A program made the position numbers and the translations under genes. From Verrucomicrobiota bacterium (GTDB lineage Bacteria > Verrucomicrobiota > Verrucomicrobiia > Verrucomicrobiales > V1-33): a stretch of DNA of 64,000 nt. Location of the stretch: contig JBDKER010000004.1 of assembly GCA_039795165.1 (NCBI GenBank), positions 48,234 to 112,233 of the forward strand. The letters run 5' to 3'. Positions 24,301 through 40,586 of this stretch are shown piece by piece (the stretch's first letter is position 1; each line of letters opens with the position of its first letter). Below the pieces are notes generated by a model. It saw only the letters and a program-made list of their open reading frames with translations. It made no database searches and had not been told where the DNA came from.

Positions 24301-24916
24301 CAACTGCCCGTTCAAGGCCCGCCGCTTCAATTTCTTCGATTACAACAAGCGCAACCCACTCGTGACCCGCAAGGTCGGCAGCTTCGAGTTCAACAACCTC
24401 TACGCCGGTCCCGCCGGGGAACGGCACGACTCGGAACTGAGCAAGGCCCAGAAGAATCCGAACGTTTCCGTGCGGATGCGCGGTGTCATCGAGAAGTGCA
24501 CCTATTGCCTGCAGCGCATCGAAAGCGCCCGCATCGATACCCGCGCCAACGCCCGCAAGGCGAAGTCGCGCGCCACCGGTGCCACGGACGATAAGCTCGT
24601 CATCGAGGAAAAGGACCTCATGATTGCCACGGACCGCGTGCGCACCGCCTGCCAGGAAGCCTGCCCGGCAGAGGCCATCGCCTTCGGCAATCTCAAGGAC
24701 GACAAGAGCAGCGTGGTCGCTTGGAAGAACAATTCCCGCAATTACGAACTCCTCGGCTACCTGTCGGTGCGGGCCCGCACGACCTACCTCGCACGCATCA
24801 AGAATCCCAACCCCGCCCTCGTCGCCGCCTCCCCACGGGAACAGCGCAAGGTCGGTCAGGGATCCAAGACGCGCCACATTCATGTCGATCACGGCACCCC
24901 CGGAGCCGCTCACTGA
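21395..24916 (+). CDS. actB: Alternative complex III subunit ActB (molybdopterin-oxidoreductase-like + FeS fusion)
   Basis: The Tat motif is SRRSFLKLMGAS. Ferredoxin-type Cys clusters are CTGCTSCLVAC, CQHCESAPCETVCP, CIGTRYCANNCP, CTYC and CQEACP. The length is 1173 aa. Confidence 0.9.
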   Translation: MKRIWHHPEEPKTGKRFWRSLSQLAKTPSSKEWLDREFPAGAAEMKDEADAETSRRSFLKLMGASTAMAGMAACRRPELHITPYAKAPEWVIPGKVLFYATSMPRTGGGTAMVVHTHEGRPTHLQGNKLHPESNGSLDSQAQASILNLYDPDRAKEILNFGKPASRDDFFGFLEKKKTEWAAAEGANLAILTDETVAPTRERLLGEIVKKFPKAKVYQHEAFGSGNPRAALAAAHGPGTVAHYHFDKADRIFSLDCDFLGLDRLGNLSVGQFMSRRKADSPDDGASMNRLYVVEGRYTLTGGMADHRLRVPASQTLKVAVDLAKAIAATASQSALATAASAVKLSGEFRGRDDYAAWIKCAADDLVAAKGKALVVAGSAHEPAVHALTALINDALGALGTVIELKQGSVLAIAGGAAELATAATAKQIDTLIILGETDPVFEGAAAKLGDALKNVPNVIAHTLRHRTATARAASWIVPATHYLEQWGDTRGFDGTYSVAQPMIAPLYAAAISDTHLLLSLVTNESLTAPATPAAAPAPGAPEDPGPEAKAVRDTFNALVKGADDNAWTNALRDGFAAASAYPAAPAFNAAAATQLAGTATDTALAQGEYEVVFVPCAKIHDGRYINNGWLQEAPDPISKVTWDNAAIVSVKTAKELGINLFNEDAADVIEVEVNGLKRWFPVITVPGHADNSILLTAGYGQNDPGQVGNGTGFDVYPLRSAATPYFAAGAKVAKLKAAVTGDALSTIAGRTEIPAVYPLGTTSEHHSMYGRALVREGTVEDWKNHADFVLDQGTDGHLHGNREEKFAENAYSFYKPEGAKDSDGNRIPHLSDPTHQWGMVIDLNKCTGCTSCLVACQSENNIPIVGKDQVRRGREMHWIRMDRYFATDLDSDAALNNRRVERNPFDSQDNSWNEDEMDDPEMLVQPVACQHCESAPCETVCPVNATVHSEDGLNVMVYNRCIGTRYCANNCPFKARRFNFFDYNKRNPLVTRKVGSFEFNNLYAGPAGERHDSELSKAQKNPNVSVRMRGVIEKCTYCLQRIESARIDTRANARKAKSRATGATDDKLVIEEKDLMIATDRVRTACQEACPAEAIAFGNLKDDKSSVVAWKNNSRNYELLGYLSVRARTTYLARIKNPNPALVAASPREQRKVGQGSKTRHIHVDHGTPGAAH

Positions 24917-24958: not shown

Positions 24959-26476
24959 ATGGCCACCGCAGAAGCCCACGATCACCCGCCCGCCAGCGGT
25001 GCCCCTTCCCGCGCGAAGGTGCTCCTCCGCGAGCCGCTGGTTCTCAATAACCGCAACTACAGCTGGATCACGAACAAGATCGCCAGCGTCATCGAGGAAC
25101 CCCAGCCGCTCCTCTGGTGGATCCTCATCGTTCCCTGCTTCCTGCTCACCCTCGTCATGGTGGGCTGCTTTACCTACCTGATCTCCACAGGGGTCGGCGT
25201 CTGGGGGCCGAACCAGCCCGCCGCATGGGGCTGGGACATCACCAACTTCGTGTTCTGGATCGGTATCGGTCACGCCGGTACCCTCATCTCGGCCATTCTG
25301 TATCTGACCCGTCAGAAATGGCGGACTGCCGTGAATCGTTCCGCGGAAGCCATGACCATCTTCGCGGTCATGTGCGCCGGCCTCTTCCCGGCTCTCCACG
25401 TCGGACGGGTCTGGATGGCATGGTTCCTTGCTCCCATCCCCAACAGCAACCAGATCTGGCAGAACTTCAAATCGCCCCTCCTCTGGGACGTGTTCGCTGT
25501 GTCCACCTATTTCACGGTCTCCGTGATCTTCTGGTTCCTCGGGCTGGTCCCTGACCTCGCGACCATGCGCGACCGCACGACCCATCCGGTCAAACGCACG
25601 CTCTATGGAATTTTCGCACTCGGCTGGCGCGGCGGAAACCGCCAGTGGCGCCACTACGAGATTGCCTACGGACTGCTCGCCGCGCTCTCAACCCCGCTGG
25701 TCCTCTCGGTCCACACCGTCGTTTCCTTCGACTTCGCCACGTCCGTGGTCCCCGGATGGCACACCACCATCTTCCCACCCTACTTCGTGGCCGGTGCCAT
25801 CTTCGGCGGGTTCGCCATGGTGCTCACCCTCATGATCCCGGTCCGCAAGATCTACGGTCTCCAGGACCTCTTCACCATGAAGCACATCGACAACATGGCG
25901 AAGATCATCGTGCTCACCGGAACCATTGTGGGCTACGCCTACCTCATGGAACTCTACGTGGCATGGTACTCGGGCAGCCTCTTCGAGTTCGATGCGTTCA
26001 AATGGCGGATTCTCTACGGACCCTACACCTGGGCCTACTACGCCATGTTCTTCTGCAACGTCATCGCCCCGCAGGCCTTCTGGTTCAAAAAATGCCGCGA
26101 AAACCTGTGGATCGTCATGGCTGTCTGCATGTGCGTGAACGCCGGCATGTGGTACGAACGCTTCGTCATCATCGTGACCACCCTCGCCCGCGACTTCCTC
26201 CCAGGAGCGTGGGACATGTACCACCCCAGCTGGGTCGAAATCTGGTCGTTCATCGGAACCTTCGGATTCTTCACGATGCTGTTCCTCCTCTTCCTGCGCT
26301 ACCTTCCCGTCATCGCCATCGGCGAAGTGAAGGCGGTTCTGCCGGAAGCCGACCCGCACTACGACCCCACCGCGAAATCCCGCGACATCACTGTGCCGGC
26401 TCCCACCTACGAAGGCGACCTCGAACACACAGGCGGCCGCCCGGCTGCCGGTTCCGCCACCGCCACCGCATCCTGA
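24959..26476 (+). CDS. actC: Alternative complex III subunit ActC (NrfD/PsrC-like quinol-interacting membrane subunit)
   Basis: The protein is polytopic and matches the NrfD-family pattern ([23 protein letters not shown]...). Its position follows actB. Confidence 0.9.
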
Positions 26477-26497: not shown

Positions 26498-27052
26498 TTG
26501 AGCACACCATTGAAACGAGTCCACGGATACCTCGCGGAATTCACCACCGTGCAGGATGTCTACCACGCCGCCGAGAAAGTGCGCGATGCCGGCTTCACGA
26601 GCTGGGACGTCCACTCTCCCTTCCCCATCCATGGCATGGATGAGGCCATGGGTCTGCCCCGCAGCATCCTCCCGAAGTTCGTCTTCGTCGGAGGTCTCAC
26701 AGGCCTGCTCACAGCCTTCGCCCTGCAGTACTACACGCAGGTCATCGACTACCCAACGGTCGTGCAGGCCAAGCCAGCCAACATCTACACACTGCCGGCC
26801 TTTTTTCCGGTGATGTTCGAACTCACCATCCTCTTCTCGGCCTTCACCGCCCTCTTCACCTGCCTCGCCATGATGAAGCTGCCGCGGCTGCACCACCCGC
26901 TCTTCAACGCTCCTTCGTTTTCCCGGTTCTCGGACGACCGCTTCTTCCTCTGCATCGAGGCACGCGATCCCCGCTTCTCGCTGGAGAAAACCAAATCCTT
27001 CCTCTCGGAACTGGGAGCCCAGAACATCGAACTCGTGGAGGACGAAGTCTAA
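26498..27052 (+). CDS. actD: Alternative complex III subunit ActD (DUF3341)
   Basis: It has a TTG start. The sequence YLAEFTTVQDVYHAAEKVRDAGFTSWDVHSPFPIHGMDEAMG plus two TM helices fits the family, as does its position. Confidence 0.85.
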   Translation: MSTPLKRVHGYLAEFTTVQDVYHAAEKVRDAGFTSWDVHSPFPIHGMDEAMGLPRSILPKFVFVGGLTGLLTAFALQYYTQVIDYPTVVQAKPANIYTLPAFFPVMFELTILFSAFTALFTCLAMMKLPRLHHPLFNAPSFSRFSDDRFFLCIEARDPRFSLEKTKSFLSELGAQNIELVEDEV

Positions 27053-27055
27053 GAT

Positions 27056-27763
27056 ATGCGCTACTTTTTCCTAGCTCTGCTCCTCGCAGGAGTGATGGTG
27101 GTGGGAACCGCAGGTTTCCGGGGTGACAAATTCTCCCGCACTCCCATCGAAATCTTCGATGACATGGACCACCAGGCGAAACTCAAACCCCAGTCGCCCA
27201 GCGGATTCTTCAGTGACGGAGTCGGTCCCCGCAAGCCCGTGGCCGGCACGGTTCCCATGGGTCTCGAAATCCCGGAGAAAACTACCGCGGAAGGTGCCTT
27301 CGTGGCCTACGGATTCTCCCACGGAAGCGATTACTACAATACCGGCCGGATCGGCGACTTCTACGGCGAAGGCTACCCGGAACAGATCGTCATCGACGAA
27401 GCCTTCCTCCGCCTCGGCAAGGAACGCTACGACGTCAACTGCGCCATCTGCCACGGAACCTCGGGCAATGGGGCGGGCGTAACCGGCAAATTCGGAGTCC
27501 CCAACATCGCCAACTTCCACACTCCCGGCTTTCTCGACCCGAAGGACCCCGCCTACCGGGCCAATGGTTCCATCTACGAAACCATCACCAAAGGGAAAGG
27601 CCTCATGGGCGGCTACGGAGCCAACATTCCGGTGCACGAACGCTGGGCCATCGTCGCGTGGGTCCGCACCTTGCAGATGAGCCGTTCCGCACCTCTTTCC
27701 GATCCCGCTGTGAAGGCCGCATGGGATCTCCTCAACCCGGCTCCCGTGGCTGTCACCAAGTAA
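27056..27763 (+). CDS. actE: Alternative complex III subunit ActE (monoheme cytochrome c)
   Basis: It has a single CAICH motif, the downstream block GKGLMGGY...RWAIVAWV, and a signal/anchor at the N-terminus. Confidence 0.8.
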   Translation: MRYFFLALLLAGVMVVGTAGFRGDKFSRTPIEIFDDMDHQAKLKPQSPSGFFSDGVGPRKPVAGTVPMGLEIPEKTTAEGAFVAYGFSHGSDYYNTGRIGDFYGEGYPEQIVIDEAFLRLGKERYDVNCAICHGTSGNGAGVTGKFGVPNIANFHTPGFLDPKDPAYRANGSIYETITKGKGLMGGYGANIPVHERWAIVAWVRTLQMSRSAPLSDPAVKAAWDLLNPAPVAVTK

Positions 27764-27782: not shown

Positions 27783-29144
27783 ATGAGCCACCACGTTGCG
27801 GTTTCACATCTCCCTGCCGATGGCGAACGGCTCCAGACGGGCCGGTTCGCTCAGTGGAAGACTATCCTCCTGGGTGCCGGCGCTGCCGGCCTCGCGGTCT
27901 CTCTGATCCTCTTCCTGCTCGGAGGAGAACGGGCGAATTCGTTCGCCTTCAGCTACCTCTTTGCCTTCGAAGTCTTCTTCACGGTGACCGCAGGTTCGCT
28001 GTTCTGGATCCTCCTCCACAGCGCTTCCAATTCCTCATGGGGAGTCGCCATCCGCCGGATCCCGGAAACACTCGCGCAGTCATTCGTTCTCCTCTTCCTC
28101 CTCGGACTTCCGCTCTTCACTCCCCTCTTCCCGCTGGCCGCCAAGCCGGAATGGACCCGCCACGTCTGGGAATGGATCGGCCTGCACCAGGACGTGCTCG
28201 CCCACCCAACCCCGGAAACGAAAGGGCTTTCCCTGCACGATGCCCTTGGCGCAAATCACGACACGCTCCTGCTCTACAAGAAGTTTCCCTACCTTCATAT
28301 CGGCTGGAACTTCCTCCCTGGCTGGGACTACCGCTACCTGATCTTCTTCGGCGTTCTCTTCTTCCTCGCCCGGAAAATGCTCGGCTATTCGATCAGCCAG
28401 GACGCCACCGGCGACGTCAAACCAACGTACAGCGCCCGCCGCTTCGCCAGCGGTGGCATGGTCCTCTTCGCAGTCTGCTCGACCTTCGCGTCCATCGACT
28501 GGGTCAAGAGCATGAACTACAAGTGGTTCTCAACGATGTTCGGGGTCAATGTGTTCGCAGGCTCGGCACTGGCCGCCATGGCTGTCACCATCCTCGTGGT
28601 GGGCACCCTCGTGAAAACTGGACACCTCCGCCACATCGTTTCGGAGGAACACTTCCACCTCATGGGTAAACTCATGTTCGCCTTCACGGTCTTCTGGGCC
28701 TATATCGCCTTCAGCCAGTTCTTCCTCATCTGGTACGCCAACATTCCGGAAGAAACTCAGTTCTACGGAATCCGGAACACCAACGGATGGTGGTACGCCA
28801 GCCTCGGCCTCGTCTTCCTCCACTTTGCCGTCCCCTTCGTCCTCCTGCTCCGCCGTAACGCCAAACGCGACATCGGCTTCATCATGGGATGCGCCGCCTT
28901 CATCCTCGGGGTCCACATGCTCGAAATGTACTGGATGATCGTTCCCGAACGCGGTCGTGCCCTCTACGATGCCAGTTCAGCGACTGATTCCGCCACTTGG
29001 CTCCGTGACGTCGCCTTCGACCTGATTGCCCTCGTCACTTTCGCCGGACTCTACGGATTCACGCTCCTGCGGAACCTCGCGAAGCACAGCATCTATCCCT
29101 GCGGCGATCCCCGCCTCGAGGAATCCATCAACGTGGCCAACTGA
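27783..29144 (+). CDS. actF: Alternative complex III subunit ActF (second NrfD-like membrane subunit)
   Basis: The polytopic 453-aa protein follows actE. Confidence 0.8.
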   Translation: MSHHVAVSHLPADGERLQTGRFAQWKTILLGAGAAGLAVSLILFLLGGERANSFAFSYLFAFEVFFTVTAGSLFWILLHSASNSSWGVAIRRIPETLAQSFVLLFLLGLPLFTPLFPLAAKPEWTRHVWEWIGLHQDVLAHPTPETKGLSLHDALGANHDTLLLYKKFPYLHIGWNFLPGWDYRYLIFFGVLFFLARKMLGYSISQDATGDVKPTYSARRFASGGMVLFAVCSTFASIDWVKSMNYKWFSTMFGVNVFAGSALAAMAVTILVVGTLVKTGHLRHIVSEEHFHLMGKLMFAFTVFWAYIAFSQFFLIWYANIPEETQFYGIRNTNGWWYASLGLVFLHFAVPFVLLLRRNAKRDIGFIMGCAAFILGVHMLEMYWMIVPERGRALYDASSATDSATWLRDVAFDLIALVTFAGLYGFTLLRNLAKHSIYPCGDPRLEESINVAN

Positions 29145-29170: not shown

Positions 29171-29572
29171 ATGCAAGATCATTCCGGAGATACCCTCGGC
29201 AACCGCTTCCTCACCTTCTGGGGAGCCCTCGCCGCCATTGCCGCGGTCGCCGTGTTGCTCGCTCTCTACCGCTGGTGGGCCCTCCCATCGGACAGCGCTT
29301 CGTCCGATGGCGGAGCCGGAGCCGCCCGCGCTACCATCGCGGCTACCGTTCATTCCGAACAACGCAAGGAATATAGCACCGCTGCGGAAGTCGAAGCCGG
29401 AAAGAGCGTCCGCCTCCCGGCCGACGCGCTGATCTCTTACGCCGCCGCTGTCCTCAAGACCCAGAAGCCCGTGCCCGGTCCTCTGAAAACCCCAGAGGCC
29501 ACCGCCCGCGAGGCTGAGGAGAAGTCGAAAACCGAGCACGATCCCAACCTTTCCAAGTTCGAAGGCAAGTAA
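29171..29572 (+). CDS. Hypothetical single-pass membrane protein (possible accessory ACIII subunit)
   Basis: It has one TM helix (FLTFWGALAAIAAVAVLLALYRWW) and a charged C-terminal tail. It is tightly packed between actF and the CcoN-like gene. I recognised no family motif. Confidence 0.5.
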   Translation: MQDHSGDTLGNRFLTFWGALAAIAAVAVLLALYRWWALPSDSASSDGGAGAARATIAATVHSEQRKEYSTAAEVEAGKSVRLPADALISYAAAVLKTQKPVPGPLKTPEATAREAEEKSKTEHDPNLSKFEGK

Positions 29573-29604: not shown

Positions 29605-31092
29605 ATGAGTCAGGAAACACCATCCCTGCCCCCCGGAGTCACCCCGGAGGATATCGAGCAGCGCGCCGCCATCGACCGCTCCACTCGCTTCCCGGTTCTC
29701 TTCTTTTTCACCAGCGGAGCCGCATGGCTGCTGGTGGCCACGCTGCTCGGTCTCCTCGCCGCGCTGAAATTCGTCGCCACCGGAGCCTTCAAGTTCGAGG
29801 TGCTCAACCTCGCACGCGTGCAACCCGCTTTCGTCAACGCCCTCGTCTACGGCTGGGCCTTCCAGGCGGGCATCGGAGTCATGATCTGGATCATGGCCCG
29901 ACTCTGCCGCACGGAACTCCGCAACCCCGTCACGCTGATCGTTGCCGGGCATTTCTGGAACCTTGGCGTTACCCTTGGGATCGCTGGCATCCTCGGCGGT
30001 CAGGGCAACCTGCACATGAAGATGATGGAGTTCCCGCCGCTCGTCTGGCCCCTTCTCCTCATCGCCTACACGCTCATCGTGGTCTGGTTGGTCATCATGT
30101 TCGCCGCACGCCGGCGTCAGGAGACCTACGTCTCCCAATGGTACATCCTCGCAGCCTGCTTCACCTGGCCATGGATCTACCTCGTTGCCAACGTACTCCT
30201 CAACGTCTTCAAGAAGGCCGGTGTCGCTGGCCCGGTGGTCGCCTCGTGGTACTCCAGCGGTGTCACCTTCCTCTGGATGGTTCCCGTCGGACTCGCGAGC
30301 GCCTACTTCATCATCCCGAAAATCACCGGAAAGCCGATCCATAGCTACAATCTCAGCAGCTTCGCTTTCTGGTCGCTCATCGTGCTCGCCCCATGGGCCG
30401 GCGCGCAGGAACTCATCGGCGGCCCTGTCCCCGTCTGGATTCCGGCAGTCGCAGGAACGGCTCAGATTCTTCTGCTGATCCCCATGCTCGCCGTCTGCGT
30501 AAATCACTTCAGAACGGTGAGCGGATCGCATGAACTAGTCGCTGTCAGCCCGAGCCTCCGCTTCACGTTCATGGGCGCTGTCGGTTACGTCTGTCTCTGC
30601 CTCGCGGCTGCCATTCTTGGATCCATGACCCTGAGCCGATTCACCTTCCTAAGCTTCACGCAGGATGCGGTCTTCCTCACCGGAACCTACATGTTTTTCA
30701 GCATGGCCATGTTCGGAGCCATCTACTTCATCGTGCCACGCATCACGGGCTGTGAATGGATCAGCGGTGCCCGCATCCGTCTCCACTTCTGGCTGTCTGC
30801 CTATGCCTGCATCGGGCTTTGCCTGCTGCTTCTCGTGGCTGGCTTCTCGCACGGTGCGGCCATCGATACATGGGATACTTCCTTCGAGTCCGCCGTAACC
30901 TTCTCCAGCGGCTACCTCGTGGGAAGAATTCTCCTCTGGCTCTTCCTGCTCGTGGCCAACGTTGTCTTCCTGCACCACCTCGCCCTCATGGTAATGAACC
31001 GGGGACGCAAGGCGGGCGACCCAACCCTGATCGCACCCACGCCGTACGACACCGCCGACATTGTCATCACCACCGAAGGAGCCGAGGCATGA
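29605..31092 (+). CDS. CcoN-like (cbb3 oxidase subunit I homologue) membrane protein lacking the canonical heme/CuB histidine ligands
   Basis: Shared blocks with CcoN are SWY, AYFIIPK..KPIHSYNLS..FW.LI...WAG, FGAIYFIVPR and RLHFWL. There is no His at the ligand positions (F76, S218, Q268/E269, T361/M363). Confidence 0.8.
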   Translation: MSQETPSLPPGVTPEDIEQRAAIDRSTRFPVLFFFTSGAAWLLVATLLGLLAALKFVATGAFKFEVLNLARVQPAFVNALVYGWAFQAGIGVMIWIMARLCRTELRNPVTLIVAGHFWNLGVTLGIAGILGGQGNLHMKMMEFPPLVWPLLLIAYTLIVVWLVIMFAARRRQETYVSQWYILAACFTWPWIYLVANVLLNVFKKAGVAGPVVASWYSSGVTFLWMVPVGLASAYFIIPKITGKPIHSYNLSSFAFWSLIVLAPWAGAQELIGGPVPVWIPAVAGTAQILLLIPMLAVCVNHFRTVSGSHELVAVSPSLRFTFMGAVGYVCLCLAAAILGSMTLSRFTFLSFTQDAVFLTGTYMFFSMAMFGAIYFIVPRITGCEWISGARIRLHFWLSAYACIGLCLLLLVAGFSHGAAIDTWDTSFESAVTFSSGYLVGRILLWLFLLVANVVFLHHLALMVMNRGRKAGDPTLIAPTPYDTADIVITTEGAEA

Positions 31093-31850
31093 ACAGTCTG
31101 AAATCATTCATTCTCACCATGGGAGCCTGCGTTGGCGTTCCCACCCTTGTCATGGCCGTCCTGCCCTACGGCAAGGAACGCAACCGCCAGGCGGTCGCCT
31201 ACCAATCGCTCCCGGACCCCGCCAATCCAGCTGCCCCTCCCAAGGATCCCGAAGAACTCAAAGGCCTCTACTACCCCACCAACTACGCCGGCGACCGGAA
31301 GCGCGGTGAAATGGTCTACGCCCACGAAGGCTGTGCCCAATGCCACACCCAGGTTGTCCGGCCCGACTACGCAGGCATCGACCAGTTCAAGAAGGGATTC
31401 GGACGCGAACAGGAATACGCCAAAGAAGTTCCCGTGGCGGTCCGGCAAACCCATCCGTGGGATTACATGCACGAGGATTTCGCCATGATCGGTGTCCGCC
31501 GCGTGGGTCCGGATCTTGCCAATGCTGCGTACCGTTACCTCGACAAGGATGGCCGTCCTGACCCCGTAAAGGTCAATGCTCTCTACCAGCACTTCTATTC
31601 CCCCCGCTCCCTCCGCGGCTGGTCCAACAGTCCATCCTTCAAGCATCTCTTCCGCACCGTCCGCAAGGAAAAGCCGGAAGGACGTGGCGATGCTCTCCAG
31701 CTTCCCGCAAACATCGCTCCGGATGACGGATACGAAATCATTCCAACCGACGAAGCCAAGGCCCTCGTGGAATATATCCTCGGGCTAAAGCGCGACGCCC
31801 CGCTCCCTTCCGCCATCACCGGCATCGTCCCGCAGCCGGGTGCTCAGTGA
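31089..31850 (+). CDS. CcoO-like monoheme cytochrome c (cbb3 oxidase subunit II homologue)
   Basis: It overlaps the upstream gene by ATGA. It has an N-terminal TM helix, the motif YAHEGCAQCHTQVVRP, and VRRVGPDLANA. Confidence 0.8.
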   Translation: MNSLKSFILTMGACVGVPTLVMAVLPYGKERNRQAVAYQSLPDPANPAAPPKDPEELKGLYYPTNYAGDRKRGEMVYAHEGCAQCHTQVVRPDYAGIDQFKKGFGREQEYAKEVPVAVRQTHPWDYMHEDFAMIGVRRVGPDLANAAYRYLDKDGRPDPVKVNALYQHFYSPRSLRGWSNSPSFKHLFRTVRKEKPEGRGDALQLPANIAPDDGYEIIPTDEAKALVEYILGLKRDAPLPSAITGIVPQPGAQ

Positions 31851-31874
31851 CCGACCGTTTTTCCAGCTTTTCCC

Positions 31875-32651
31875 ATGGCCTCCTCTCCTGACAACATCGA
31901 CTACGACCGCACGGTGAACGTGGCCGGACTCCACGCGGCGGCCGCCCGCGAACGCTCCGCTACCCCCATCGGAACTACCCCGGTCTCTCTCTGGGTCGTC
32001 CTTGCCACCGGCGTCGTCACCATCCTCGCCGGAGGCTACCTCGGCCGCAATACCGGTTCGGACCTCGGAGCCGCCAACCTCAACGGCTACAACTATACCC
32101 TCCAGTACCCGGAAGGAGCCGGAGGAGGTGGCACCGCCATGAGCGATGAAGAACTCCGCGAGGACGCCAACTGGCTCGCAGCCGGCAAGGCCGTCTACAC
32201 CGGTGCTGGCAACTGCGTCGGTTGCCACCAGGCCAGTGGCGAAGGCGTCGCCGGCCAGTTTCCTCCGCTCAAGGCGTCGGATTGGGTCACCGGAAGCGAT
32301 AAGCGCCTCGTCGCCATCCTGCTCTACGGCATCGGTGGTTCCTTCACAGTCAACGGGAAGACCTACAACGGCCAGATGCCCGCCCAGGGGACAGCCCTCA
32401 ACAACAAGCAAATCGCTCAGGTCGCCTCCTACATCCGCAACGACTGGGGTAACAAGGCATCCCTCATCTACGACGACCAGGTCGCCGCCGTGAAAAAGGA
32501 AATCGTCCGCCAGGCTTCATGGACGCAGACGGACCTCGAAGCCGCCATTCCCGCCGACGCGGTCTGCCCTGTCTCGGAATGGCCTGCCAAAATCTCAGCC
32601 GCCGCCGGTGGAGCCGCCGCCACACCTGCTCCGGCACCCGCCAAGAACTGA
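31875..32651 (+). CDS. Membrane-anchored class-I monoheme cytochrome c
   Basis: It has a TM helix (VSLWVVLATGVVTILAGGYL), GNCVGCHQ...FPPL...YNGQMP...IAQVASYIRNDWGN, and an Ala/Pro-rich tail. Confidence 0.8.
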   Translation: MASSPDNIDYDRTVNVAGLHAAAARERSATPIGTTPVSLWVVLATGVVTILAGGYLGRNTGSDLGAANLNGYNYTLQYPEGAGGGGTAMSDEELREDANWLAAGKAVYTGAGNCVGCHQASGEGVAGQFPPLKASDWVTGSDKRLVAILLYGIGGSFTVNGKTYNGQMPAQGTALNNKQIAQVASYIRNDWGNKASLIYDDQVAAVKKEIVRQASWTQTDLEAAIPADAVCPVSEWPAKISAAAGGAAATPAPAPAKN

Positions 32652-32711: not shown

Positions 32712-34589
32712 ATGGCTGCCACCGCCGATCACACCCACGACCACGCTGCGCACGGGCACGACCACGATCACCACGATCATCACGACCCGGGCTTCATCAA
32801 GAAGTACATCTTCTCGACGGACCACAAGATGATCGGCGTCCAGTACGGCATCTCCGGTCTCCTCTTCCTCGCCTTCGGATTCATGCTCATGCTGGTCATG
32901 CGCTGGAGCATCGCGCATCCCGGTGAGCCGCTGCCGGGCGGACTCCGCTGGATCCTTCACATCTTCGGTGATGACTTCGTCACCCGCTGGGCCCCCGATG
33001 GCAAGGTCTCGGGCTCCCTCTACAACATGTTCGGTGCCATGCACGGCACCATCATGGTGTTCTTCGGTGTCGTGCCCCTCGGCTTCGCTGCCTTCGTGAA
33101 TTTCGTCATGCCTCTCCAGATCGGTGCTCCCGACATGGCCTTCCCCAGACTGAATATGTGGAGCTACTGGCTCTTCTTCATCAGCGGGGTCTTCATGATG
33201 GCCAGCTTCCTCCTCCCCACCGGAGCCGCCCAGGCTGGCTGGACCAACTACTCACCGCTCGCCGCCGTCGTGCAGCGGAATACCGATGCCCGCTTCTGGA
33301 CCGGTCAGACCCAGTGGCTCTTCGCCATGGTCTTCAATATCTCCGCGTCCCTCCTCGGCTCGGTAAACGTCCTCACCACCGTCATCAACCTCCGCGCCAA
33401 GGGCCTCACATGGATGCGCCTCCCGTTCTTCACATGGGCAATGTTCGTGATCGGCTTCCTCCTGCTCCTCGCCTTCCCGCCTCTCGAAGTTGCCGCTCTC
33501 ATGCAGCTGAGCGACCAGGTTTTCCAGTCGAGCTTCTTCCTGCCGACCGGTCTATGGACGAGCGAAGCCGGCATTCTTGACATTTCCGGCGGCGGCCACC
33601 CGGTTCTCTTCCAGCACCTTTTCTGGTTCCTCGCCCACCCCGAAGTCTACGTCCTGCTCCTTCCGGGGATCGCAATCGTCGCAGAGATCATTCCCTGCAA
33701 CACCCGGAAGCCGCTCTGGGGTTACAAGTCCATGGTCTATGCCTTGCTGACCCTCGCCTTCCTCAGCTTCATCGTCTGGGCTCACCACATGTACCTAACC
33801 GGCATGGGCACGGTCGTCGCCACGTTCTTCCAGTTCACCACGGTGATGATCTCGGTCCCGTCCGTTATCCTTCTTACCTGCCTCATGCTCTCCCTCTGGG
33901 GTGGATCAATCCGATTCCCGGTGCCCATGCTGTTCGCCACCGCCTTCCTGCCCATGTTCGGTATCGGCGGTCTCACTGGTCTCCCCCTCGCCTTCAGCTT
34001 CATTGACCTCTACCTCCACGACACCTACTACGTCATCGCCCACTTCCACTACGTGGTCGCTCCCGGTGTCATCTTTGCCCTCTTTGCGGGTGTCTATCAC
34101 TGGTATCCGAAGGTGACCGGCCGCATGATGAATTCCTTCCTCGGTCACCTGCACTTCTGGCCCTCCCTCATCATGATGAATGTCCTCTTCGCCCCGATGT
34201 TCATTCAGGGGATGGCGGGATTCCACCGCCGCTGGTACGATGGCGGCAAGGTCTTCGAAATCACCAGCCACAAGTACTTCTACCTGAATGAGATCATCTC
34301 ATGGGGCGCATGGGGCCTCGGTCTGGCCCAGATCCCCTTCATCATCAATTTCTTCCTCTCAGCCAAAGCCGGCCGCAAGGTGACGTCGGACAACCCGTGG
34401 AACGCCACAACGCTTGAATGGTCGGCTCCAACCCCACCGCCGCACGGCAACTTCCTGACCGAACCGGTCGTCTACCGCGGTCCCTACGAGTACAGCGTCC
34501 CCGGGGCTGACAAGGACTACAGCCCGCAGTGGGAACCTGTCACGGCGAAGGAGGCCGAGGAAACTGCCAAGGTGGCAGTCCCGCACTGA
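32712..34589 (+). CDS. ctaD: aa3-type cytochrome c oxidase subunit I
   Basis: All canonical ligand motifs are present: FGAMHGTIMVFF, WFLAHPEVYVLLLPG, VWAHHMY and VIAHFHYV. The N-terminal extension is His-rich. Confidence 0.95.
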   Translation: MAATADHTHDHAAHGHDHDHHDHHDPGFIKKYIFSTDHKMIGVQYGISGLLFLAFGFMLMLVMRWSIAHPGEPLPGGLRWILHIFGDDFVTRWAPDGKVSGSLYNMFGAMHGTIMVFFGVVPLGFAAFVNFVMPLQIGAPDMAFPRLNMWSYWLFFISGVFMMASFLLPTGAAQAGWTNYSPLAAVVQRNTDARFWTGQTQWLFAMVFNISASLLGSVNVLTTVINLRAKGLTWMRLPFFTWAMFVIGFLLLLAFPPLEVAALMQLSDQVFQSSFFLPTGLWTSEAGILDISGGGHPVLFQHLFWFLAHPEVYVLLLPGIAIVAEIIPCNTRKPLWGYKSMVYALLTLAFLSFIVWAHHMYLTGMGTVVATFFQFTTVMISVPSVILLTCLMLSLWGGSIRFPVPMLFATAFLPMFGIGGLTGLPLAFSFIDLYLHDTYYVIAHFHYVVAPGVIFALFAGVYHWYPKVTGRMMNSFLGHLHFWPSLIMMNVLFAPMFIQGMAGFHRRWYDGGKVFEITSHKYFYLNEIISWGAWGLGLAQIPFIINFFLSAKAGRKVTSDNPWNATTLEWSAPTPPPHGNFLTEPVVYRGPYEYSVPGADKDYSPQWEPVTAKEAEETAKVAVPH

Positions 34590-34622: not shown

Positions 34623-36074
34623 ATGGAGATCCCTTACACCGTAAATGCACGGCCCGATACCGGCCTCTACAATGCCAAAGTCGGTATCTGGCTGTTCCTC
34701 GCCTCCGAAGTCATGCTCTTCGGCGGATTGTTCTCTTCCTACGTCTTCCTGCGAATCGGGGCCGACTTCCCATGGCCATTCCATGAACTGAAAGTCAGGC
34801 CTGGCTTCATCAACACAATGGTGCTCATCGCATCGTCCGTGTCGGTGGTGGCCGCATGGGCGGCCGTGAAGGCGCGCCGCTTCGGATGGTTCCAGTTCAA
34901 CATGATCTTCACGCTCCTCTGCGCGCTGGGATTCATGGGAATCAAGGGCTACGAGTACTACCACAAGTTCATCCACTACTCGTTCGAATTCACGGACGGG
35001 TCGGTCATCAATGGCCACCCGGTTCACACCGACGAAAAGAACCATGGGGACCGCATTGTCTTCGACGAGGTAAAGTCGATCGTCCTCGATCTCCGGAACA
35101 GCAATCTCGACTTCCTCAGCCAGCGGCGGGAAGCCAAGGGAGATCTTCCCTACGCCGCTCCGTCGACCGCTGATCTCAAGTTCAAGACGCCCAGCGGCAA
35201 GGAAATCACTCTCACGAAACAGTGGCTCAAAACCGCCAAGCGCCAGTGGATGGATGCCGCCACGGACCTCTCCCGCAAGGTCACCGCACTTGAACTCGAA
35301 AAGGCCGCCGCCAAAGGCAACGAAGAAGCCCTTTCAGCCATTGGTGTCCGCCTCGATGCCGTGAACAAGGAGGCCATCGACAAAGCCAAGGCTGATGACC
35401 TCACGCAGTCGCTCAAACTGGAGGTCGTCGGGAATCCCCTCCTTTTCCTCGTGAAGGAAGGAATGCTGGCCCGCTACGGTCAGGCCGAGATGAGTTTCAA
35501 GGATTCCACCGTCCTCCAGGGTAAACTGGTCACCGACTCCATCGAGTTCAACGCCGACCTCATCGACCTCCGCAAGAACAAGGATCCGGAAAAGGCTCTC
35601 GTCTGGAAGTACTATCCGGATCTCAAGGACGATTTCCTCCGTCACCGCGATGAAAGGACGGAATCCTTCAAGAAGCGCTACCCGAAAAGGGCCGGTACGG
35701 CCGACGGCGATCCTGACAACCTCCGGGAATCCCTCCGCTTCGAATTCGAGGAAACCCTTCCCAAGGACCTTGCCCACAGTCTGCTGCATGACCGGGAGAA
35801 GACCGTCAGTCTCCCCCGCAGCGAAAAACGGTTCTACTCGAACTTCACTCCAGCCCTCAGCCCGTACTACGCCATCTACTTCCTGATGACTGGTCTGCAC
35901 GGCCTCCACGTTATCGGCGGTGCCATCGTGCTCGGCTGGTTCCTCATCACAGGAAAGAAAATGTACCGCGAAAATCCGGAACACCTCGCCAACCGCGTGG
36001 AAGTAGGCGGCCTCTTCTGGCACTTGGTCGACCTTGTGTGGATCTTCCTCTTCCCGCTCTACTACCTCATGTAA
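34623..36074 (+). CDS. ctaE: Cytochrome c oxidase subunit III with a large internal soluble insertion
   Basis: The N-terminal part is WLFLASEVMLFGGLFSSY...GIKGYEYYHKF. The C-terminal part is YFLMTGLHGLHVIGG...GLFWHLVDLVWIFLFPLYYL. They are separated by about 280 hydrophilic residues. Confidence 0.85.
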   Translation: MEIPYTVNARPDTGLYNAKVGIWLFLASEVMLFGGLFSSYVFLRIGADFPWPFHELKVRPGFINTMVLIASSVSVVAAWAAVKARRFGWFQFNMIFTLLCALGFMGIKGYEYYHKFIHYSFEFTDGSVINGHPVHTDEKNHGDRIVFDEVKSIVLDLRNSNLDFLSQRREAKGDLPYAAPSTADLKFKTPSGKEITLTKQWLKTAKRQWMDAATDLSRKVTALELEKAAAKGNEEALSAIGVRLDAVNKEAIDKAKADDLTQSLKLEVVGNPLLFLVKEGMLARYGQAEMSFKDSTVLQGKLVTDSIEFNADLIDLRKNKDPEKALVWKYYPDLKDDFLRHRDERTESFKKRYPKRAGTADGDPDNLRESLRFEFEETLPKDLAHSLLHDREKTVSLPRSEKRFYSNFTPALSPYYAIYFLMTGLHGLHVIGGAIVLGWFLITGKKMYRENPEHLANRVEVGGLFWHLVDLVWIFLFPLYYLM

Positions 36075-36084: not shown

Positions 36085-36441
36085 ATGGATTCCTCCCACG
36101 AAACCCATCCGGCGCACGACGCCCCCGATCATCCGATCGATTTCGGCAAGGCCATCAAGACCTACCTCAAGGTCGGAGCCACCCTGATCGTCTTCACGTT
36201 CATCACCGTCTTCGTCGCCTACAAGGTCGACCTCGGAGATATCCATCTGAACATCGCTCTCGGCCTGCTCATCGCAGCATTCAAGGTTTCGCTGGTCGCG
36301 CTCATCTTCATGCACCTCAACCATGAACGGGGGCTGATCTACAAGACGCTCCTGTTCACGATGATCTTCTTCGCTGCCATGATGTTCCTCTTCTGTCTGG
36401 CTTACAGCGACCCGATCCATAATTCCTTTCTGCAGCCCTGA
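36085..36441 (+). CDS. Prokaryotic cytochrome c oxidase subunit IV (COX4_pro-like)
   Basis: The ATG at 36085 starts a protein with the pattern YLKVGATLIVFTFITVF...LIAAFKVSLVALIFMHLNHE typical of bacterial subunit IV / CyoD-like proteins. Confidence 0.75.
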   Translation: MDSSHETHPAHDAPDHPIDFGKAIKTYLKVGATLIVFTFITVFVAYKVDLGDIHLNIALGLLIAAFKVSLVALIFMHLNHERGLIYKTLLFTMIFFAAMMFLFCLAYSDPIHNSFLQP

Positions 36442-36897: not shown

Positions 36898-37734
36898 ATG
36901 GGACTTCTCAATAAACTCCTCGGTATCCCGCCCGTCGGCTCGGAGCATGGCCACATGCTCGACCACATGCTCGAGATTGTGCACTGGTTCATGCTTGCCC
37001 TCGGCCTTGGGTGGAGCATTTTCGTTGGCTATTCCCTCTTCCGCTTCTACCGGAAACGGAATCCGAAGGCGTCGTACACCGGTGTCACCAGTCACGCTTC
37101 CAGCCACCTTGAGATCGGGGTCATCGTTACGGAGGTCATCCTTCTCCTCGGGTTCGCATTTCCACTCTGGGCCACGCGCGTCGATCAGTTCCCGGATCCC
37201 GATGTCCGCATCAATGCATGGGCCGAACAATTCAAATGGAACTTCCATTACACCGGTGCAGACGGCAAATTCGGCATGACAAACCGGTTCCTCATTTCGT
37301 CCGCCAACCCCATTGGAATCGACCCGGAAGATCCGAACGGACTTGATGACATCGTGGTTCCGGAACTTTTCCTTCCCAAGGGCAAAAAAGTTGAAATCGC
37401 CGTCACTTCGAAGGACGTGATCCACAACCTCGCCCTCGTCGGCATGCGCATCGCTCAGGATGCCGACCCTGGAAAAGTCAGCCGCATGTGGTTCATCCCA
37501 TCCGCTCTCGGCGACTCGGAAGTCATCTGCGGGCAGCTCTGCGGCGCAGCTCACGGCAACATGAAGTCTCTCCTCCACGTGGTCGACCAGAAGAGCTTCG
37601 AAGGATGGGAAAAGGATGCGCCGAAATTCCGCGACACTCCCTTCGGTGCGGAAGCCGCGAAGAAACTCGGACTCGCCGAAACTCCCGCCGCCACCCCGGC
37701 TCCGGCAGCGGCTCCCGCCCCGGCGGTCCAGTGA
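36898..37734 (+). CDS. ctaC: aa3-type cytochrome c oxidase subunit II (CuA subunit, no fused cytochrome c)
   Basis: It has two N-terminal TM helices. The CuA motif is DVIHN...CGQLCGAAHGNM (H, CxxxC, H, M). The tail is Pro/Ala-rich. Confidence 0.85.
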   Translation: MGLLNKLLGIPPVGSEHGHMLDHMLEIVHWFMLALGLGWSIFVGYSLFRFYRKRNPKASYTGVTSHASSHLEIGVIVTEVILLLGFAFPLWATRVDQFPDPDVRINAWAEQFKWNFHYTGADGKFGMTNRFLISSANPIGIDPEDPNGLDDIVVPELFLPKGKKVEIAVTSKDVIHNLALVGMRIAQDADPGKVSRMWFIPSALGDSEVICGQLCGAAHGNMKSLLHVVDQKSFEGWEKDAPKFRDTPFGAEAAKKLGLAETPAATPAPAAAPAPAVQ

Positions 37735-37768: not shown

Positions 37769-37795
37769 GCGGGCGCTGAGAGTCTCAGCGCCCGC
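37769..37795 (+). terminator. Strong GC hairpin (probable intrinsic terminator or attenuator) after the subunit II gene
   Basis: The sequence is GCGGGCGCTGAG-AGT-CTCAGCGCCCGC, a perfect 12-bp stem followed by TCTGTTT. It starts 35 nt after the stop at 37734. Confidence 0.65.
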
Positions 37796-37839: not shown

Positions 37840-38853
37840 ATGGCCACCAAAGCCGACCGCCTGCTACCGCGCCTTGCGCTGCTGACCCTCGTGCTCCTGT
37901 ACCTTGTGGTGCTGGCTGGTTCGGTGGTGCGGGCGACCGGATCGGGCATGGGCTGTCCGGATTGGCCCCGTTGCTATGGGAAGCTCATTCCTCCCACCCG
38001 TGCGGAGGACATCGATGTGGCAAAACTCGATCTTGAACGGTACCGCCGCTCGTGGGCTTCGCACGGCAGAGAGGACGTGGAGGTCACGGAGGAATCCATC
38101 CGCAGGAATTTCAGCGCGCTGGAAACATGGATCGAATTCATCAACCGCTGCCTCGGTGCCGTGAGTGGACTTGCGGCGGTGGCAACGTTTCTCTGTTCCA
38201 TCCTGTCATCCCGGAGCGACTGGCTGCTGCGTGGCCTGCTGCTGGCGGAACTGGTGCTGTTTGGGGTGGTGGCATGGCTAGGCAAGGTGGTCGTGGATAC
38301 CAATCTCCTGCCATGGAAGATCACGCTGCACATGATGCTGGCCATGGGGCTCATCACCATGGCGCTGGCCATTCTGCACCGTGTGCGTCCGGGATCACCG
38401 GTGCCGGTGACGCGATCGATGCGTTGGCACCTCGCTGTCTGCCTGCTTGCGGTCCTCGTGCAGACTGTGGTCGGCACTCAGGTGCGCGAACTGGTCGATG
38501 AGCACAGCCTCGCATCCTGCTGCGGGGACAGGCTGGAGCAGCATCTCGGAATCTCGCTCGTCTGGCATCGCATCGGAGCCATCACGACGCTCACGCTCGT
38601 GGCCATCGCCTTTTTCCGCCTGCGCTTCGGAGCAGGGAAGGGGGCGGATGCAGCGCCGCTGCTTACGAATGCGCTCGGTCTGCTGGTGGCCGTGGAGTAC
38701 GGGGTCGGTGTCCTCCTCATCCGGGCCGGACTGCCTGCGGCTCTTCAGCCCGTCCATCTTGTCCTTGCCTTCGTACTTCACGGTCTGCTTTTCGCCCTGC
38801 TGCTGCGCAGCCGGTTGCAGCCAGACAACTCGTCAGCCAATCTGACTTCCTGA
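37840..38853 (+). CDS. ctaA: Heme A synthase (COX15/CtaA)
   Basis: The motif is LVVLAGSVVRATGSGMGCPDWPRCYG. The protein is polytopic with conserved His in helices (LHMML, WH). Confidence 0.85.
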   Translation: MATKADRLLPRLALLTLVLLYLVVLAGSVVRATGSGMGCPDWPRCYGKLIPPTRAEDIDVAKLDLERYRRSWASHGREDVEVTEESIRRNFSALETWIEFINRCLGAVSGLAAVATFLCSILSSRSDWLLRGLLLAELVLFGVVAWLGKVVVDTNLLPWKITLHMMLAMGLITMALAILHRVRPGSPVPVTRSMRWHLAVCLLAVLVQTVVGTQVRELVDEHSLASCCGDRLEQHLGISLVWHRIGAITTLTLVAIAFFRLRFGAGKGADAAPLLTNALGLLVAVEYGVGVLLIRAGLPAALQPVHLVLAFVLHGLLFALLLRSRLQPDNSSANLTS

Positions 38854-39830
38854 TGCCTGTTCCCGCTTCCGGCCAATCCTCCGATGCTCCCGTGGCGGTC
38901 CCCCTGCGCCCGGGATTCAGCCGCGGGGATTTCATGCTGCTCACCAAGGCGCGCCTGAGCGCTCTGGTGGTGATCACCACGGCTGCAGGATATGCGCTGC
39001 ACCTCGCTCTGCGTGAATGGCCGGACGCCCTGCCATGGCGGCTTGTCCATACGCTGCTGGGAACCGCGCTGACGGCCTTTGGAGCCTCGGTGTTCAACCA
39101 GCTCATGGAGATGGATGCCGACGCTCGCATGCAGCGGACGGCCGACCGCCCCCTCGCTGCCCGCCGTCTCCAGCCTGAAGTCGCCTTTCTGATCGGTGCC
39201 CTCCTTGCCGGAGCTGGGCTCATTCATCTGGGCGTCAAAGTGAACGTGGAAGCGGCTGCTCTCGCGGGCCTGACGCTGCTGGTGTATCTTTTCATTTACA
39301 CCCCGATGAAACGCACGTCGGTCTGGAACACGATCGTGGGGGCCGTGTCCGGAGCCATTCCGCCTGTCATCGGCTGGGTCGCCGTGGCCGGTGGCAAGGA
39401 GTTCCGCAACTATCACCGCGAACTGATCCGCTGGGACCTCCTCGCAGCGCAGCCCGCCTTCTTCCTGTTCGCCCTCCTCTTTCTCTGGCAATTGCCTCAC
39501 TTTCTCGCCATCAACTGGATGTACCGCGAGGAATACATCAGGGGTGGCTTCGTGATGTGGAGCAACAACGATGAAACCGGTCGCGCCACGGCCCGCCGGG
39601 CCTTCGCATGGAGCCTGCTGCTGCTTCCGTTGGCACTCTGGCCTCCGCTGGCTGGGTTCACTTCATGGATTGCGGCGATCCCGGGGCTCCTGCTGGGAGG
39701 TTGGCTGGTCTGGCTCAGTCTCCGCTTTCTCCGGAATCCCGACCGCGCAGCGGCCCGCCGGCTATTTCTGGCAACCCTGCTCTACCTCCCGGGCATGCTC
39801 GCGGTGGTCCTTTGCTGCGCCCGTAACTGA
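38853..39830 (+). CDS. ctaB: Protoheme IX farnesyltransferase (heme O synthase)
   Basis: It shows the UbiA-family pattern (NQLMEMDADARMQRTADRPL, YTPMKR). The start overlaps the ctaA stop (TGATG). Confidence 0.9.
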   Translation: MPVPASGQSSDAPVAVPLRPGFSRGDFMLLTKARLSALVVITTAAGYALHLALREWPDALPWRLVHTLLGTALTAFGASVFNQLMEMDADARMQRTADRPLAARRLQPEVAFLIGALLAGAGLIHLGVKVNVEAAALAGLTLLVYLFIYTPMKRTSVWNTIVGAVSGAIPPVIGWVAVAGGKEFRNYHRELIRWDLLAAQPAFFLFALLFLWQLPHFLAINWMYREEYIRGGFVMWSNNDETGRATARRAFAWSLLLLPLALWPPLAGFTSWIAAIPGLLLGGWLVWLSLRFLRNPDRAAARRLFLATLLYLPGMLAVVLCCARN

Positions 39831-39857
39831 ACGGTAGCCGTCCTTCTCCTAAACATC

Positions 39858-40586
39858 ATGGAAGCCCCCGCCCCGGACACGCCCCCTCCATCAAGACGCA
39901 CCGCCGTCGCCATCTGCCTCGTCCTCATGGCCCTCGGCACAGTGGTCTGGTTCAATTACTACCTCAAGGTCCGCCAGGATCTCATGAAGGGCCGGCTCCC
40001 CAAAAAGCAGTCCGTCGAAAAGGACCCGGGATTTTTCATCGATGCCAAGGGCCGCGAACGGCGTCTCGAGGAGATCAAAGGCAAAGTCATTGTCCTTTCC
40101 TACGTCTATACGACCTGCCCCAGCGGCTGCGCCGGCGTCGCTGATGCCATGAAGCGCCTCCAGGATGAATTCGGAAGCGATCCCCGCTTCCAACTCGTTT
40201 CCGTCAGTCTCTACCCGGAAAACGACCGGCCGGAACTGCTCCGCTCGTGGACCGAAACCAAGGGATTCTCCGGGGACAACTGGTGGTTCCTGACCACGAA
40301 AAACGGAACTCCAGAGGAAGGCGATGCCCTCCGCAAATGGATGATGACCACCTTCAAGATCTCCGTGAAGCGAAAGCCGGAGGACAAGATCCGCGAGAAC
40401 CCCGCCGATATCTGGGACCACTCGCTCGTCATGGTCATGGTCGATCACCGGGGAGCCGTCCGCACGCCCACGGATAATGATTATTTCTGGTATCCCTTCC
40501 ATCCGGCCTTCGATGACTCATGGTATCCGCGGCCCATCGCCGAGGATGTCCGCAAGGTGCTCGATGAAGCCGCCCGCGGCGAATGA
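39858..40586 (+). CDS. SCO1/SenC copper chaperone
   Basis: It has a TM anchor, a thioredoxin-like fold with YTTCPSGC (CxxxC), and a downstream DHS. Confidence 0.85.
   Translation: MEAPAPDTPPPSRRTAVAICLVLMALGTVVWFNYYLKVRQDLMKGRLPKKQSVEKDPGFFIDAKGRERRLEEIKGKVIVLSYVYTTCPSGCAGVADAMKRLQDEFGSDPRFQLVSVSLYPENDRPELLRSWTETKGFSGDNWWFLTTKNGTPEEGDALRKWMMTTFKISVKRKPEDKIRENPADIWDHSLVMVMVDHRGAVRTPTDNDYFWYPFHPAFDDSWYPRPIAEDVRKVLDEAARGE

Follow-up and report, generated by a model that had tools for sequence, protein, structure and literature searches.

A 64,000-nucleotide stretch of a Verrucomicrobiota genome assembly (GCA_039795165.1, contig JBDKER010000004.1, positions 48,234 to 112,233 of the forward strand; hereafter, the window) encodes a homologue of CcoN, subunit I of the cbb3-type cytochrome c oxidases, that lacks the ligands of heme b, heme b3 and CuB as well as the cross-linked Tyr. 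This gene (29605..31092, + strand; N-like) is followed by a homologue of CcoO (31089..31850, +; O-like) and a membrane-anchored monoheme cytochrome c (31875..32651, +; third cytochrome), and the trio lies between the genes of alternative complex III (ACIII) and those of an aa3-type oxidase. The feature is genuine, shows good conservation and has probably not been described before: no prior description of a His-less CcoN or a pseudo-cbb3 was found in the open-access literature, in line with the remark in a first-pass annotation of the window that no such module was known to have been characterised. Judging from the residues it carries, N-like is a pseudo-oxidase derived from cbb3 and is very unlikely to work as a terminal oxidase. 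We interpret it, with a rough probability of 0.6, as a non-catalytic scaffold maintained by selection within a trio that serves as an on-path electron relay. Taken separately, the scaffold part of this interpretation is highly probable, and for the relay part the odds are about even.

Retained fold and lost ligands of the CcoN homologue

N-like matched Pfam COX1 (1.5e-31) and the TIGR00780 ccoN model (8e-29, 100.9 bits), although the equivalog cut-off of the latter (583.15) was not reached. A phmmer search returned only CcoN chains among its matches, including that of Pseudomonas stutzeri (3mk7_A; 1.5e-22). The AlphaFold2 (AF2) model, built from 65 homologues, had a mean predicted local distance difference test score (pLDDT) of 86.9 and a predicted template modelling score (pTM) of 0.89. 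All of the top seven Foldseek matches of this model were CcoN structures (TM-scores of 0.83–0.89), with NorB and ba3 oxidases well behind, and its superposition on 3mk7_A gave a root-mean-square deviation of 2.3 Å (TM-scores of 0.84/0.89). The predicted structure is that of subunit I of heme-copper oxidases with 12 transmembrane (TM) helices, nearest to the C family. N-like is a true CcoN homologue on both the alignments and the model, as had been proposed for this open reading frame (ORF) in the first-pass annotation.

The ligand columns were read from phmmer and MAFFT alignments, in the numbering of P. stutzeri CcoN. Both axial His residues of the low-spin heme b were replaced (H60 by F76 and H347 by L358), as was the proximal His of the high-spin heme b3 (H345 by V356, or by A355 in the phmmer register). 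At the CuB site, H207, H257 and H258 corresponded to S218, Q268 and E269, respectively, and the cross-linked Tyr (Y251) to A262. The nine His residues of N-like are located at positions 116, 137, 246, 301, 309, 394, 416, 457 and 458; none occurs between residues 310 and 393, and in the AF2 model TM2, TM6, TM7 and TM10 are all free of His. Because these four ligand helices carry no His at all, the ligand loss is independent of the alignment register, and an alignment error masking the His residues was ruled out. The first-pass annotation had likewise described substitution at every His ligand and four helices free of His, and this description held when the six columns were read against CcoN. 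Its register for the motif equivalent to IGHVH (T361/M363) had to be corrected, as both alignments place the motif approximately five residues earlier (V356/L358).

The loss extends to the relatives of N-like. Among 114 full-length homologues, no His was found at the H207, H345 or H347 columns and no Tyr at the Y251 column, and stray His residues occurred in eight sequences at H60, one at H257 and three at H258. Of the seven ligand positions, each of the 80 Verrucomicrobiales species loci kept two at most. No His, Met, Cys, Lys or Tyr that could replace a ligand was conserved throughout the degenerate clade, and Q268, at the former CuB position, was kept in 110 of the 114 close homologues. These alignments leave N-like with no canonical ligation of heme b, heme b3 or CuB.

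The two partner proteins retain features of cytochromes. O-like has an N-terminal TM segment (residues 4–22), a heme attachment motif (C82AQCH86) and an R-x-G-P-D-L block, and it matched Pfam FixO with 33.5 bits (gathering score, 29.6). It therefore has the anchor, the CxxCH motif and the FixO homology of a CcoO protein, and it shares 37% identity (E 1e-33) with the CcoO of a fully liganded operon (locus L087). The CxxCH motif was present in all 77 O-like homologues. The axial Met of the CcoO SxMP motif is absent: Ser181 (window 31629-31631) aligned to it against both 3mk7_B and the L087 CcoO. The O-like heme site had earlier been called intact; this is supported for CAQCH and R-x-G-P-D-L but not for the axial ligand, so that the predicted heme-attachment site is intact and canonical His/Met ligation is not. 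At this column, the 77 homologues carried M (44), S (21), C (7) or H (3), and the Met was kept in most ligand-less lineages (44/77) and also in those of loci L085, L086 and L088. Nothing convincing was found among these sequences as a clade-specific substitute for the lost Met. His186 is a candidate sixth ligand of the O-like heme and is common, yet it is also present in Met-bearing relatives.

The third cytochrome is, as first annotated, a TM-anchored monoheme protein, with a single predicted TM helix (residues 37–55), one CVGCH motif and Met168, and it can be classified as a class I cytochrome c (Pfam Cytochrom_C, 9.3e-13). CcoP carries two class I heme c domains behind its TM anchor; the match to TIGR00782 ccoP (3e-11, 43 bits, cut-off 180) covered one of these, consistent with the single CxxCH. 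The third subunit of the fully liganded L087 operon shares 34% identity with this protein, and fully liganded operons of the Planctomycetota–Verrucomicrobiota–Chlamydiota (PVC) bacteria likewise have a monoheme third subunit. CxxCH was found in 73 of 74 homologues and Met in 74 of 74. Both O-like and the third cytochrome thus keep their predicted covalent c-heme sites.

All three genes appear to be under strong purifying selection. In comparison with the closest diverged relative (L006), the ratio of nonsynonymous to synonymous substitution rates (dN/dS) was 0.019 for N-like, 0.028 for O-like and 0.032 for the third cytochrome, and the neighbouring respiratory genes gave 0.012 (ctaD), 0.026 (actF) and 0.024 (ctaC). 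The values for N-like ranged from 0.019 to 0.14. An identical N-like protein was encoded on 21 metagenomic contigs, and the locus was found at 99% identity in a Verrucomicrobiales metagenome-assembled genome (MAG). By these ratios, selection on N-like is as strong as that on the neighbouring respiratory genes, and N-like combines the loss of catalytic residues with purifying selection across many species, the combination by which pseudoenzymes are recognised. The first-pass annotation had argued that N-like is not a terminal oxidase, a view that gains from these results: the ligands are gone, the gene is conserved and selected, and the c-hemes of its neighbours are kept.

Distribution, liganded relatives and maturation genes

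Homologues of N-like with 42–99% identity were present in at least 80 GTDB species genomes, all belonging to Verrucomicrobiales, and 555 matching stretches in all were confirmed by a genome scan. The order of act genes, N-like, O-like, third cytochrome and aa3 genes was kept in approximately 60 Verrucomicrobiales species. An actF homologue was located directly upstream of N-like in 57 of the 59 loci with enough upstream sequence, O-like was the next gene after N-like in 72 of 73, and the third cytochrome and ctaD followed in 62 of 62. These counts show co-occurrence with act and cta genes across Verrucomicrobiales; it did not hold in full for loci L085, L086, L088, L026 and L027, in which the arrangement differed. 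In an exhaustive HMMER search, 285 representative clusters (50% identity) were retrieved at E<=1e-30. The ligand columns were readable in 126 of the best 150 matches (430 aa or more), and 123 of these 126 lacked the full HHYHHHH set, which was found in only three. The named members were all Verrucomicrobiota (Verrucomicrobiales, Opitutaceae/Opitutae and Chthoniobacterales), and most of them carried the name 'cbb3-type cytochrome c oxidase subunit I'. No cultured host was found among the cluster names, which referred to MAGs only.

Fully liganded relatives of N-like were identified in a profile search, which yielded 53 CcoN sequences with 35–40% identity to N-like, compared with ca. 22% for proteobacterial CcoN. 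Their sources were Coraliomargarita, Puniceicoccaceae, Opitutales and Verrucomicrobiia, and the planctomycete Telmatocola sphagniphila (L092 = CP074694.1) also has a fully liganded CcoN (37% identity). In L087, L090, L091 and L092, actABCDEF is followed in turn by a small TM ORF, an ORF of 60–86 aa, CcoN, CcoO and a monoheme cytochrome c, and a P-type ATPase gene adjoins the cluster in all four. ActC and ActD are fused in two of these loci into a protein of ca. 666 aa with NrfD and ActD domains (L087, 5559-7559; L092, 5088-7091). Locus L089 (Chthoniobacterales) has the same order and a CcoN with HRYHHHH, in which one CuB His has been lost, with no P-type ATPase within 10 kb; behind its trio comes a single COX2-like gene without a subunit I (12899-13738). 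The position directly after actF and the small TM ORF is shared by the 57 loci above, L085, L086, L088 and the ligand-bearing L087 and L089–L092; only L026 and L027 depart from it. Because the liganded relatives occupy the same place after actF, the trio is considered to fill a slot orthologous to that of the cbb3 oxidase genes linked to ACIII, and gene order and homology together identify it as a catalytically dead descendant of the ACIII-linked cbb3 oxidase of PVC bacteria.

In a neighbour-joining tree, which is indicative only because long-branch effects are possible, the liganded sequences formed a basal grade, and one large degenerate clade included the query. At least one small, separately degenerate group was also seen, including the Opitutales sequence P0125 (HHAQYHH). 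When 53 liganded and 184 degenerate sequences were compared, the drop in conservation was smallest in TM1–TM3 (0.12–0.13) and largest in TM6–TM10 (0.29–0.38), where the heme and CuB sites are formed. Positions that were strongly conserved in the degenerate clade carried the same conserved residue as in liganded CcoN, mostly W, G or P, and no new conserved motif emerged in the degenerate clade from this comparison. A pattern of residue constraint like this marks a scaffold that has been kept, not an active site that has newly arisen.

The maturation genes follow the ligands. FixS/CcoS is needed for the insertion of heme and Cu into CcoN, and CcoI supplies Cu. The 60–86-aa ORF that precedes the liganded CcoN gave a weak Pfam FixS match in Telmatocola and carries, across loci, the motif W..(K/R/N/D)G(H/Q/E)(F/L/M)......A..IF...EP.G..(T/S)D.FP. 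Such a FixS/CcoS-like ORF was located directly upstream of CcoN in all five ligand-bearing loci (four full and one minus a CuB His), and a P-type ATPase was present within 10 kb in four of them. In the window and in every ligand-less locus, no FixS-like ORF was detected (best E 0.03, at unrelated positions). A CcoI-type P-type ATPase was likewise absent from the 64-kb window and from the ligand-less loci except L085, where it is part of an adjacent, genuine cbb3 cluster. N-like thus has no linked FixS/CcoS or CcoI-type gene, and none of ccoS, ccoI, ccoG and ccoQ was found near the trio. The window also lacks a second, real cbb3, as a liganded CcoN query matched only N-like and ctaD. As a genomic trait, the absence of FixS and CcoI provides independent corroboration of the predicted cofactor loss.

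Compared with CcoNOP of P. stutzeri (3MK7/5DJQ), the trio has the same order of N, O and a P-like protein, with a 12-TM CcoN fold, a single-TM CcoO architecture including CxxCH and RxGPDL, and a third subunit homologous to the CcoP heme domain. It differs from CcoNOP in the absence of the six ligand His and the Tyr from N-like and of the axial Met from O-like, in a third subunit with one heme instead of two, in the lack of nearby ccoS, ccoI, ccoG and ccoQ, and in scores far under the equivalog cut-offs. An ACIII-cbb3 'superoperon' has been described in verrucomicrobial methanotrophs and Opitutaceae (Refojo 2010, as cited in PMC8498564). The superoperons of PVC bacteria, encountered here in T. 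sphagniphila (CP074694.1) and in Verrucomicrobiota MAGs, resemble the window in their actABCDEF genes, small TM protein, subunits I and II and monoheme cytochrome c, with identities to the trio of 35–40% (I), 37% (II) and 34% (third). Unlike the window, they combine a CcoN of the HHYHHHH type with a FixS-like gene directly upstream and, in most cases, a P-type ATPase gene. All three are missing from the window, in which an aa3 operon is appended.

The ligand-less trio also occurs in other contexts. In L085, the act genes and the trio are followed by a real cbb3 cluster (13234-21096) encoding a CcoNO fusion of 794 aa, FixP, FixG, a DsbD-like protein and the CcoI-like ATPase, so that this genome holds both a dead trio behind ACIII and a complete cbb3 cluster. 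In L086 and L088 (Opitutaceae), the act genes and trio are present with nothing oxidase-related nearby. In L026 and L027 (about 7600-11500), members of a clade with 59% identity, the aa3 operon starts with the trio, and act genes are missing within 10 kb; a divergently oriented 701-aa gene lies upstream of the trio in both. An adaptor role specific to aa3, as suggested in the first-pass annotation, is weakened by L085, L086 and L088. Because of the arrangements in all five loci, the module is not specific to the ACIII-aa3 junction; by gene order, it is tied to the quinol-to-oxidase segment generally, and most often to ACIII.

Possible role of the trio and alternative explanations

The oxidase encoded downstream of the trio is complete. 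CtaD retains all ligand motifs of an A-family subunit I (MHG, AHPEVY, WAHHM and AHFHYV), and CtaC has a CuA motif (H176...C211xxxC215xxxH219xxM222) that was present in 57 of 57 homologues, none of which had a CxxCH (0/57). Because CtaC lacks a fused cytochrome c, the aa3 oxidase requires a separate c-type donor. The c-hemes of ActA are limited to its own five, and two membrane-anchored c-type cytochromes are encoded between the ACIII and aa3 gene sets. From gene content and gene order, we infer for the trio a role in relaying electrons at the membrane or as a membrane-anchored docking module, which has the best support of the roles considered. N-like would act as a cofactor-free 12-helix platform that anchors and stabilises the single-helix O-like and third cytochrome, as CcoN does in cbb3, and it would probably dock both of them beside ACIII. 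Electrons from the heme wire of ActA and ActE would arrive at the c-hemes of O-like and the third cytochrome; because heme b is gone, they could not enter N-like and would be handed to a terminal oxidase outside the trio, which in this operon would be the co-transcribed aa3, with CuA as the entry site.

Several points weigh against this proposal. Gene order is the only evidence that associates the trio with ACIII or aa3. The O-like heme, without its canonical Met (Ser181), may sit off the main electron path, and ActE alone might reduce aa3, as has been reported for other ACIII systems (PMC5928083, PMC8552683). Where ligand-less trios have no oxidase nearby (L086, L088), gene order points to no acceptor. 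Furthermore, the AF2 model does not distinguish filled from empty pockets at the former heme sites, or from pockets that hold another ligand.

Part of this evidence would fit the main alternative, a purely structural relic, in which the assembly or stability of ACIII has come to depend on former oxidase subunits while their c-hemes lie off the path and ActE feeds aa3. Such a relic would have parallels in the Mo-less ActB and in the core proteins of bc1, which derive from peptidases. Only positions of the ancestral fold are kept in N-like, with no new motif; the axial Met of O-like has been lost in the query clade and is variable there (S, C or H); the trio sits behind ACIII also in loci without an adjacent oxidase; and ActE has been reported as the direct donor to caa3 in Rhodothermus marinus (PMC5928083). 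We nevertheless consider a relic of this kind unlikely. The invariant CxxCH of O-like (77/77) and the near-invariant CxxCH and invariant Met of the third cytochrome point to selection on heme binding, and the trio of L026 and L027 travels with aa3 rather than with ACIII.

It is still less probable that N-like and O-like form an enzyme with altered chemistry, based on a five-coordinate O-like heme with a catalytic or ligand-sensing function (peroxidase-like, or binding NO or O2) or on heme or another cofactor held by non-His residues of N-like. The change from Met to Ser, Cys or His in O-like of the query clade could open a coordination site, Q268 is nearly always kept at the former CuB position (110/114), and some distant members retain H60 together with a Met at the H347 column. 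However, the ligand-less clade shares no conserved alternative ligand, the maturation genes for FixS and CcoI have disappeared, and it is in the catalytic helices themselves that constraint has relaxed the most. Most ligand-less lineages also keep the O-like Met, so that an open heme site cannot be the function of the family as a whole. Finally, a decaying pseudogene, misassembly or annotation artefact without function could account for the loss of every catalytic residue and for scores far under the NCBIfam equivalog cut-offs, but it is hardly credible beside the intact frame and confident AF2 model, the 285 clusters at E<=1e-30 and the homologues in at least 80 species genomes, and it is effectively refuted by the dN/dS of 0.019, the recurrence of the identical sequence on 21 independent contigs and the conserved synteny.

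The relay and scaffold proposed here can be compared with known respiratory systems. Supercomplexes of ACIII with aa3 or caa3 are known from Flavobacterium johnsoniae and R. marinus (Sun 2018; PMC5928083). As in the window, ACIII genes are followed by those of an A-family oxidase in one unit, and the concept of direct heme-to-oxidase wiring that dispenses with a soluble carrier is shared. In those supercomplexes, either subunit II (caa3) or ActA carries, as a fusion, the c-heme that supplies CuA; the window has neither arrangement and instead encodes two separate membrane-anchored cytochromes and a dead CcoN between the gene sets. No ACIII supercomplex structure containing a CcoN was found in the open-access literature. 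Respiratory complexes contain other pseudoenzyme subunits as well, among them ActB of ACIII, which is free of Mo, and the core proteins of bc1, which resemble peptidases. In both of these, a catalytic fold has been retained under selection after the loss of catalytic residues, presumably as a scaffold; their folds are different from that of N-like, whose place in a complex is presumed. Within the heme-copper superfamily, the active-site His residues are completely conserved in all families except gNOR, in which one is changed (PMC11214002). The replaced His of gNOR and the heme-less NorC-like domain of qNOR (PMC11214002) resemble N-like in that a cofactor or ligand was lost while the protein persisted as a structural part; unlike N-like, which lacks the entire subunit I ligand set, gNOR and qNOR have a binuclear centre that still works.

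These results bear on the annotation of respiratory genes and on marker-gene ecology, and they make the wiring between ACIII and oxidases testable. The six His residues of subunit I are treated as an invariant signature of the superfamily (PMC11214002), and a large, selected clade without them would represent a second, non-catalytic use of the fold. In genome studies of Verrucomicrobia, genes adjacent to ACIII have been read as high-affinity cbb3 (PMC5615132, Text S1; PMC8498564); those particular genes may or may not carry the ligands. Genes annotated as a high-affinity oxidase probably encode, when their ligands are missing as in N-like, a non-catalytic scaffold or electron relay attached to ACIII. 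Because ligand-less genes bear the annotation 'cbb3-type cytochrome c oxidase subunit I', marker-gene surveys of ccoN would overestimate microaerobic capacity wherever the ligand-less form occurs. The joint loss of FixS and CcoI provides a simple genomic rule for telling live from dead cbb3. The family also forms a natural series from fully through partly to un-liganded members in the same operon slot, which would allow the study of electron handover from ACIII to oxidases and of how a respiratory enzyme turns into a scaffold. A more far-reaching proposal can be offered only tentatively, at somewhat worse than even odds: the cofactor-free subunit I may be an obligatory supercomplex scaffold on which two membrane-anchored c-hemes wire ACIII to the terminal oxidase in use in the cell, whichever it is. 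The dead 'cbb3' would then be the norm across much of Verrucomicrobiota and N-like the first pseudo-oxidase subunit of its superfamily, and microaerobic inferences drawn from ccoN would be systematically wrong for this phylum.

Gene neighbourhood and the downstream aa3 oxidase

Positions 20486-41088 (+) of the window form one tightly packed respiratory gene set consisting of act genes, the trio and cta genes; all of the genes described below are on the + strand. The pentaheme cytochrome c subunit of ACIII, actA (20486..21316), has five CxxCH motifs and one predicted TM helix and matched Pfam Cytochrome_C7 and CIII. Its homologue is kept upstream in related loci, and its start is possibly internal (the JGI call is 218 aa). 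It is followed by actB (21395..24916), an Fe-S/molybdopterin-like subunit with a twin-arginine translocation signal (Pfam Fer4 families and TAT_signal), the NrfD-type membrane subunit gene actC (24959..26476; NrfD, 7.1e-21) and actD (26498..27052; ActD, 5.7e-64). The product of actE (27056..27763) is a monoheme cytochrome c that matched Pfam Cytochrome_CBB3 and Cytochrom_C, and one CxxCH was found in 61 of 61 of its homologues. The second large membrane subunit, actF (27783..29144), was assigned from its size and its position after actE, without a Pfam match. A small single-TM protein of 133 aa (29171..29572; predicted TM at residues 14–32) is a candidate ActG. An ORF of 97–153 aa fills this slot in all act-linked loci, and the dN/dS of the 133-aa ORF was approximately 0.10; it had no BLAST similarity to its positional counterpart in L087, and the name ActG is a positional guess.

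The gaps from actF through the 133-aa ORF, N-like, O-like and the third cytochrome to ctaD are 26, 32, −4 (an ATGA overlap), 24 and 60 nt, and the order of these six genes, together with the coordinates and overlap within the trio, was as given in the first-pass annotation. The aa3 genes begin with ctaD (32712..34589; COX1, 1.8e-120) and ctaE (34623..36074; COX3), followed by a COX4_pro small subunit (36085..36441; Pfam COX4_pro, with a gene call in L001), two ORFs of ca. 65 aa (36455-36658 and 36679-36870) and ctaC (36898..37734; Pfam COX2), which encodes the CuA subunit II. A terminator-like hairpin with a 12-bp stem containing 10 G-C pairs (37769..37795) lies just 3' of ctaC. It is the only strong terminator-like match in 26-42 kb, as the other two matches on the + strand there have 5-bp stems. 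Because of the tight gaps and this sole strong hairpin, the stretch from the act genes to ctaC looks like one transcription unit, likely ending at 37769-37795. Beyond it, ctaA, ctaB, SCO1/SenC and DUF420 genes (37840..41088; Pfam COX15-CtaA, UbiA, SCO1-SenC and DUF420) provide heme a and CuA biogenesis for aa3.

The aa3 oxidase itself showed three further features. Its gene order of ctaD, ctaE, COX4_pro, two ORFs of ca. 65 aa and ctaC places the CuA subunit last (32712-37734). In CtaE (483 aa), the COX3 halves (residues 19–115 and 406–481) are separated by a hydrophilic insertion of ca. 290 aa rich in Lys, Glu and Asp, which is unusual for subunit III. The N-terminus of CtaD, MAATADHTHDHAAHGHDHDHHDHHD (window 32712-32790), is rich in His, with 12 in the first 25 residues, and it could represent a metal-binding extension.

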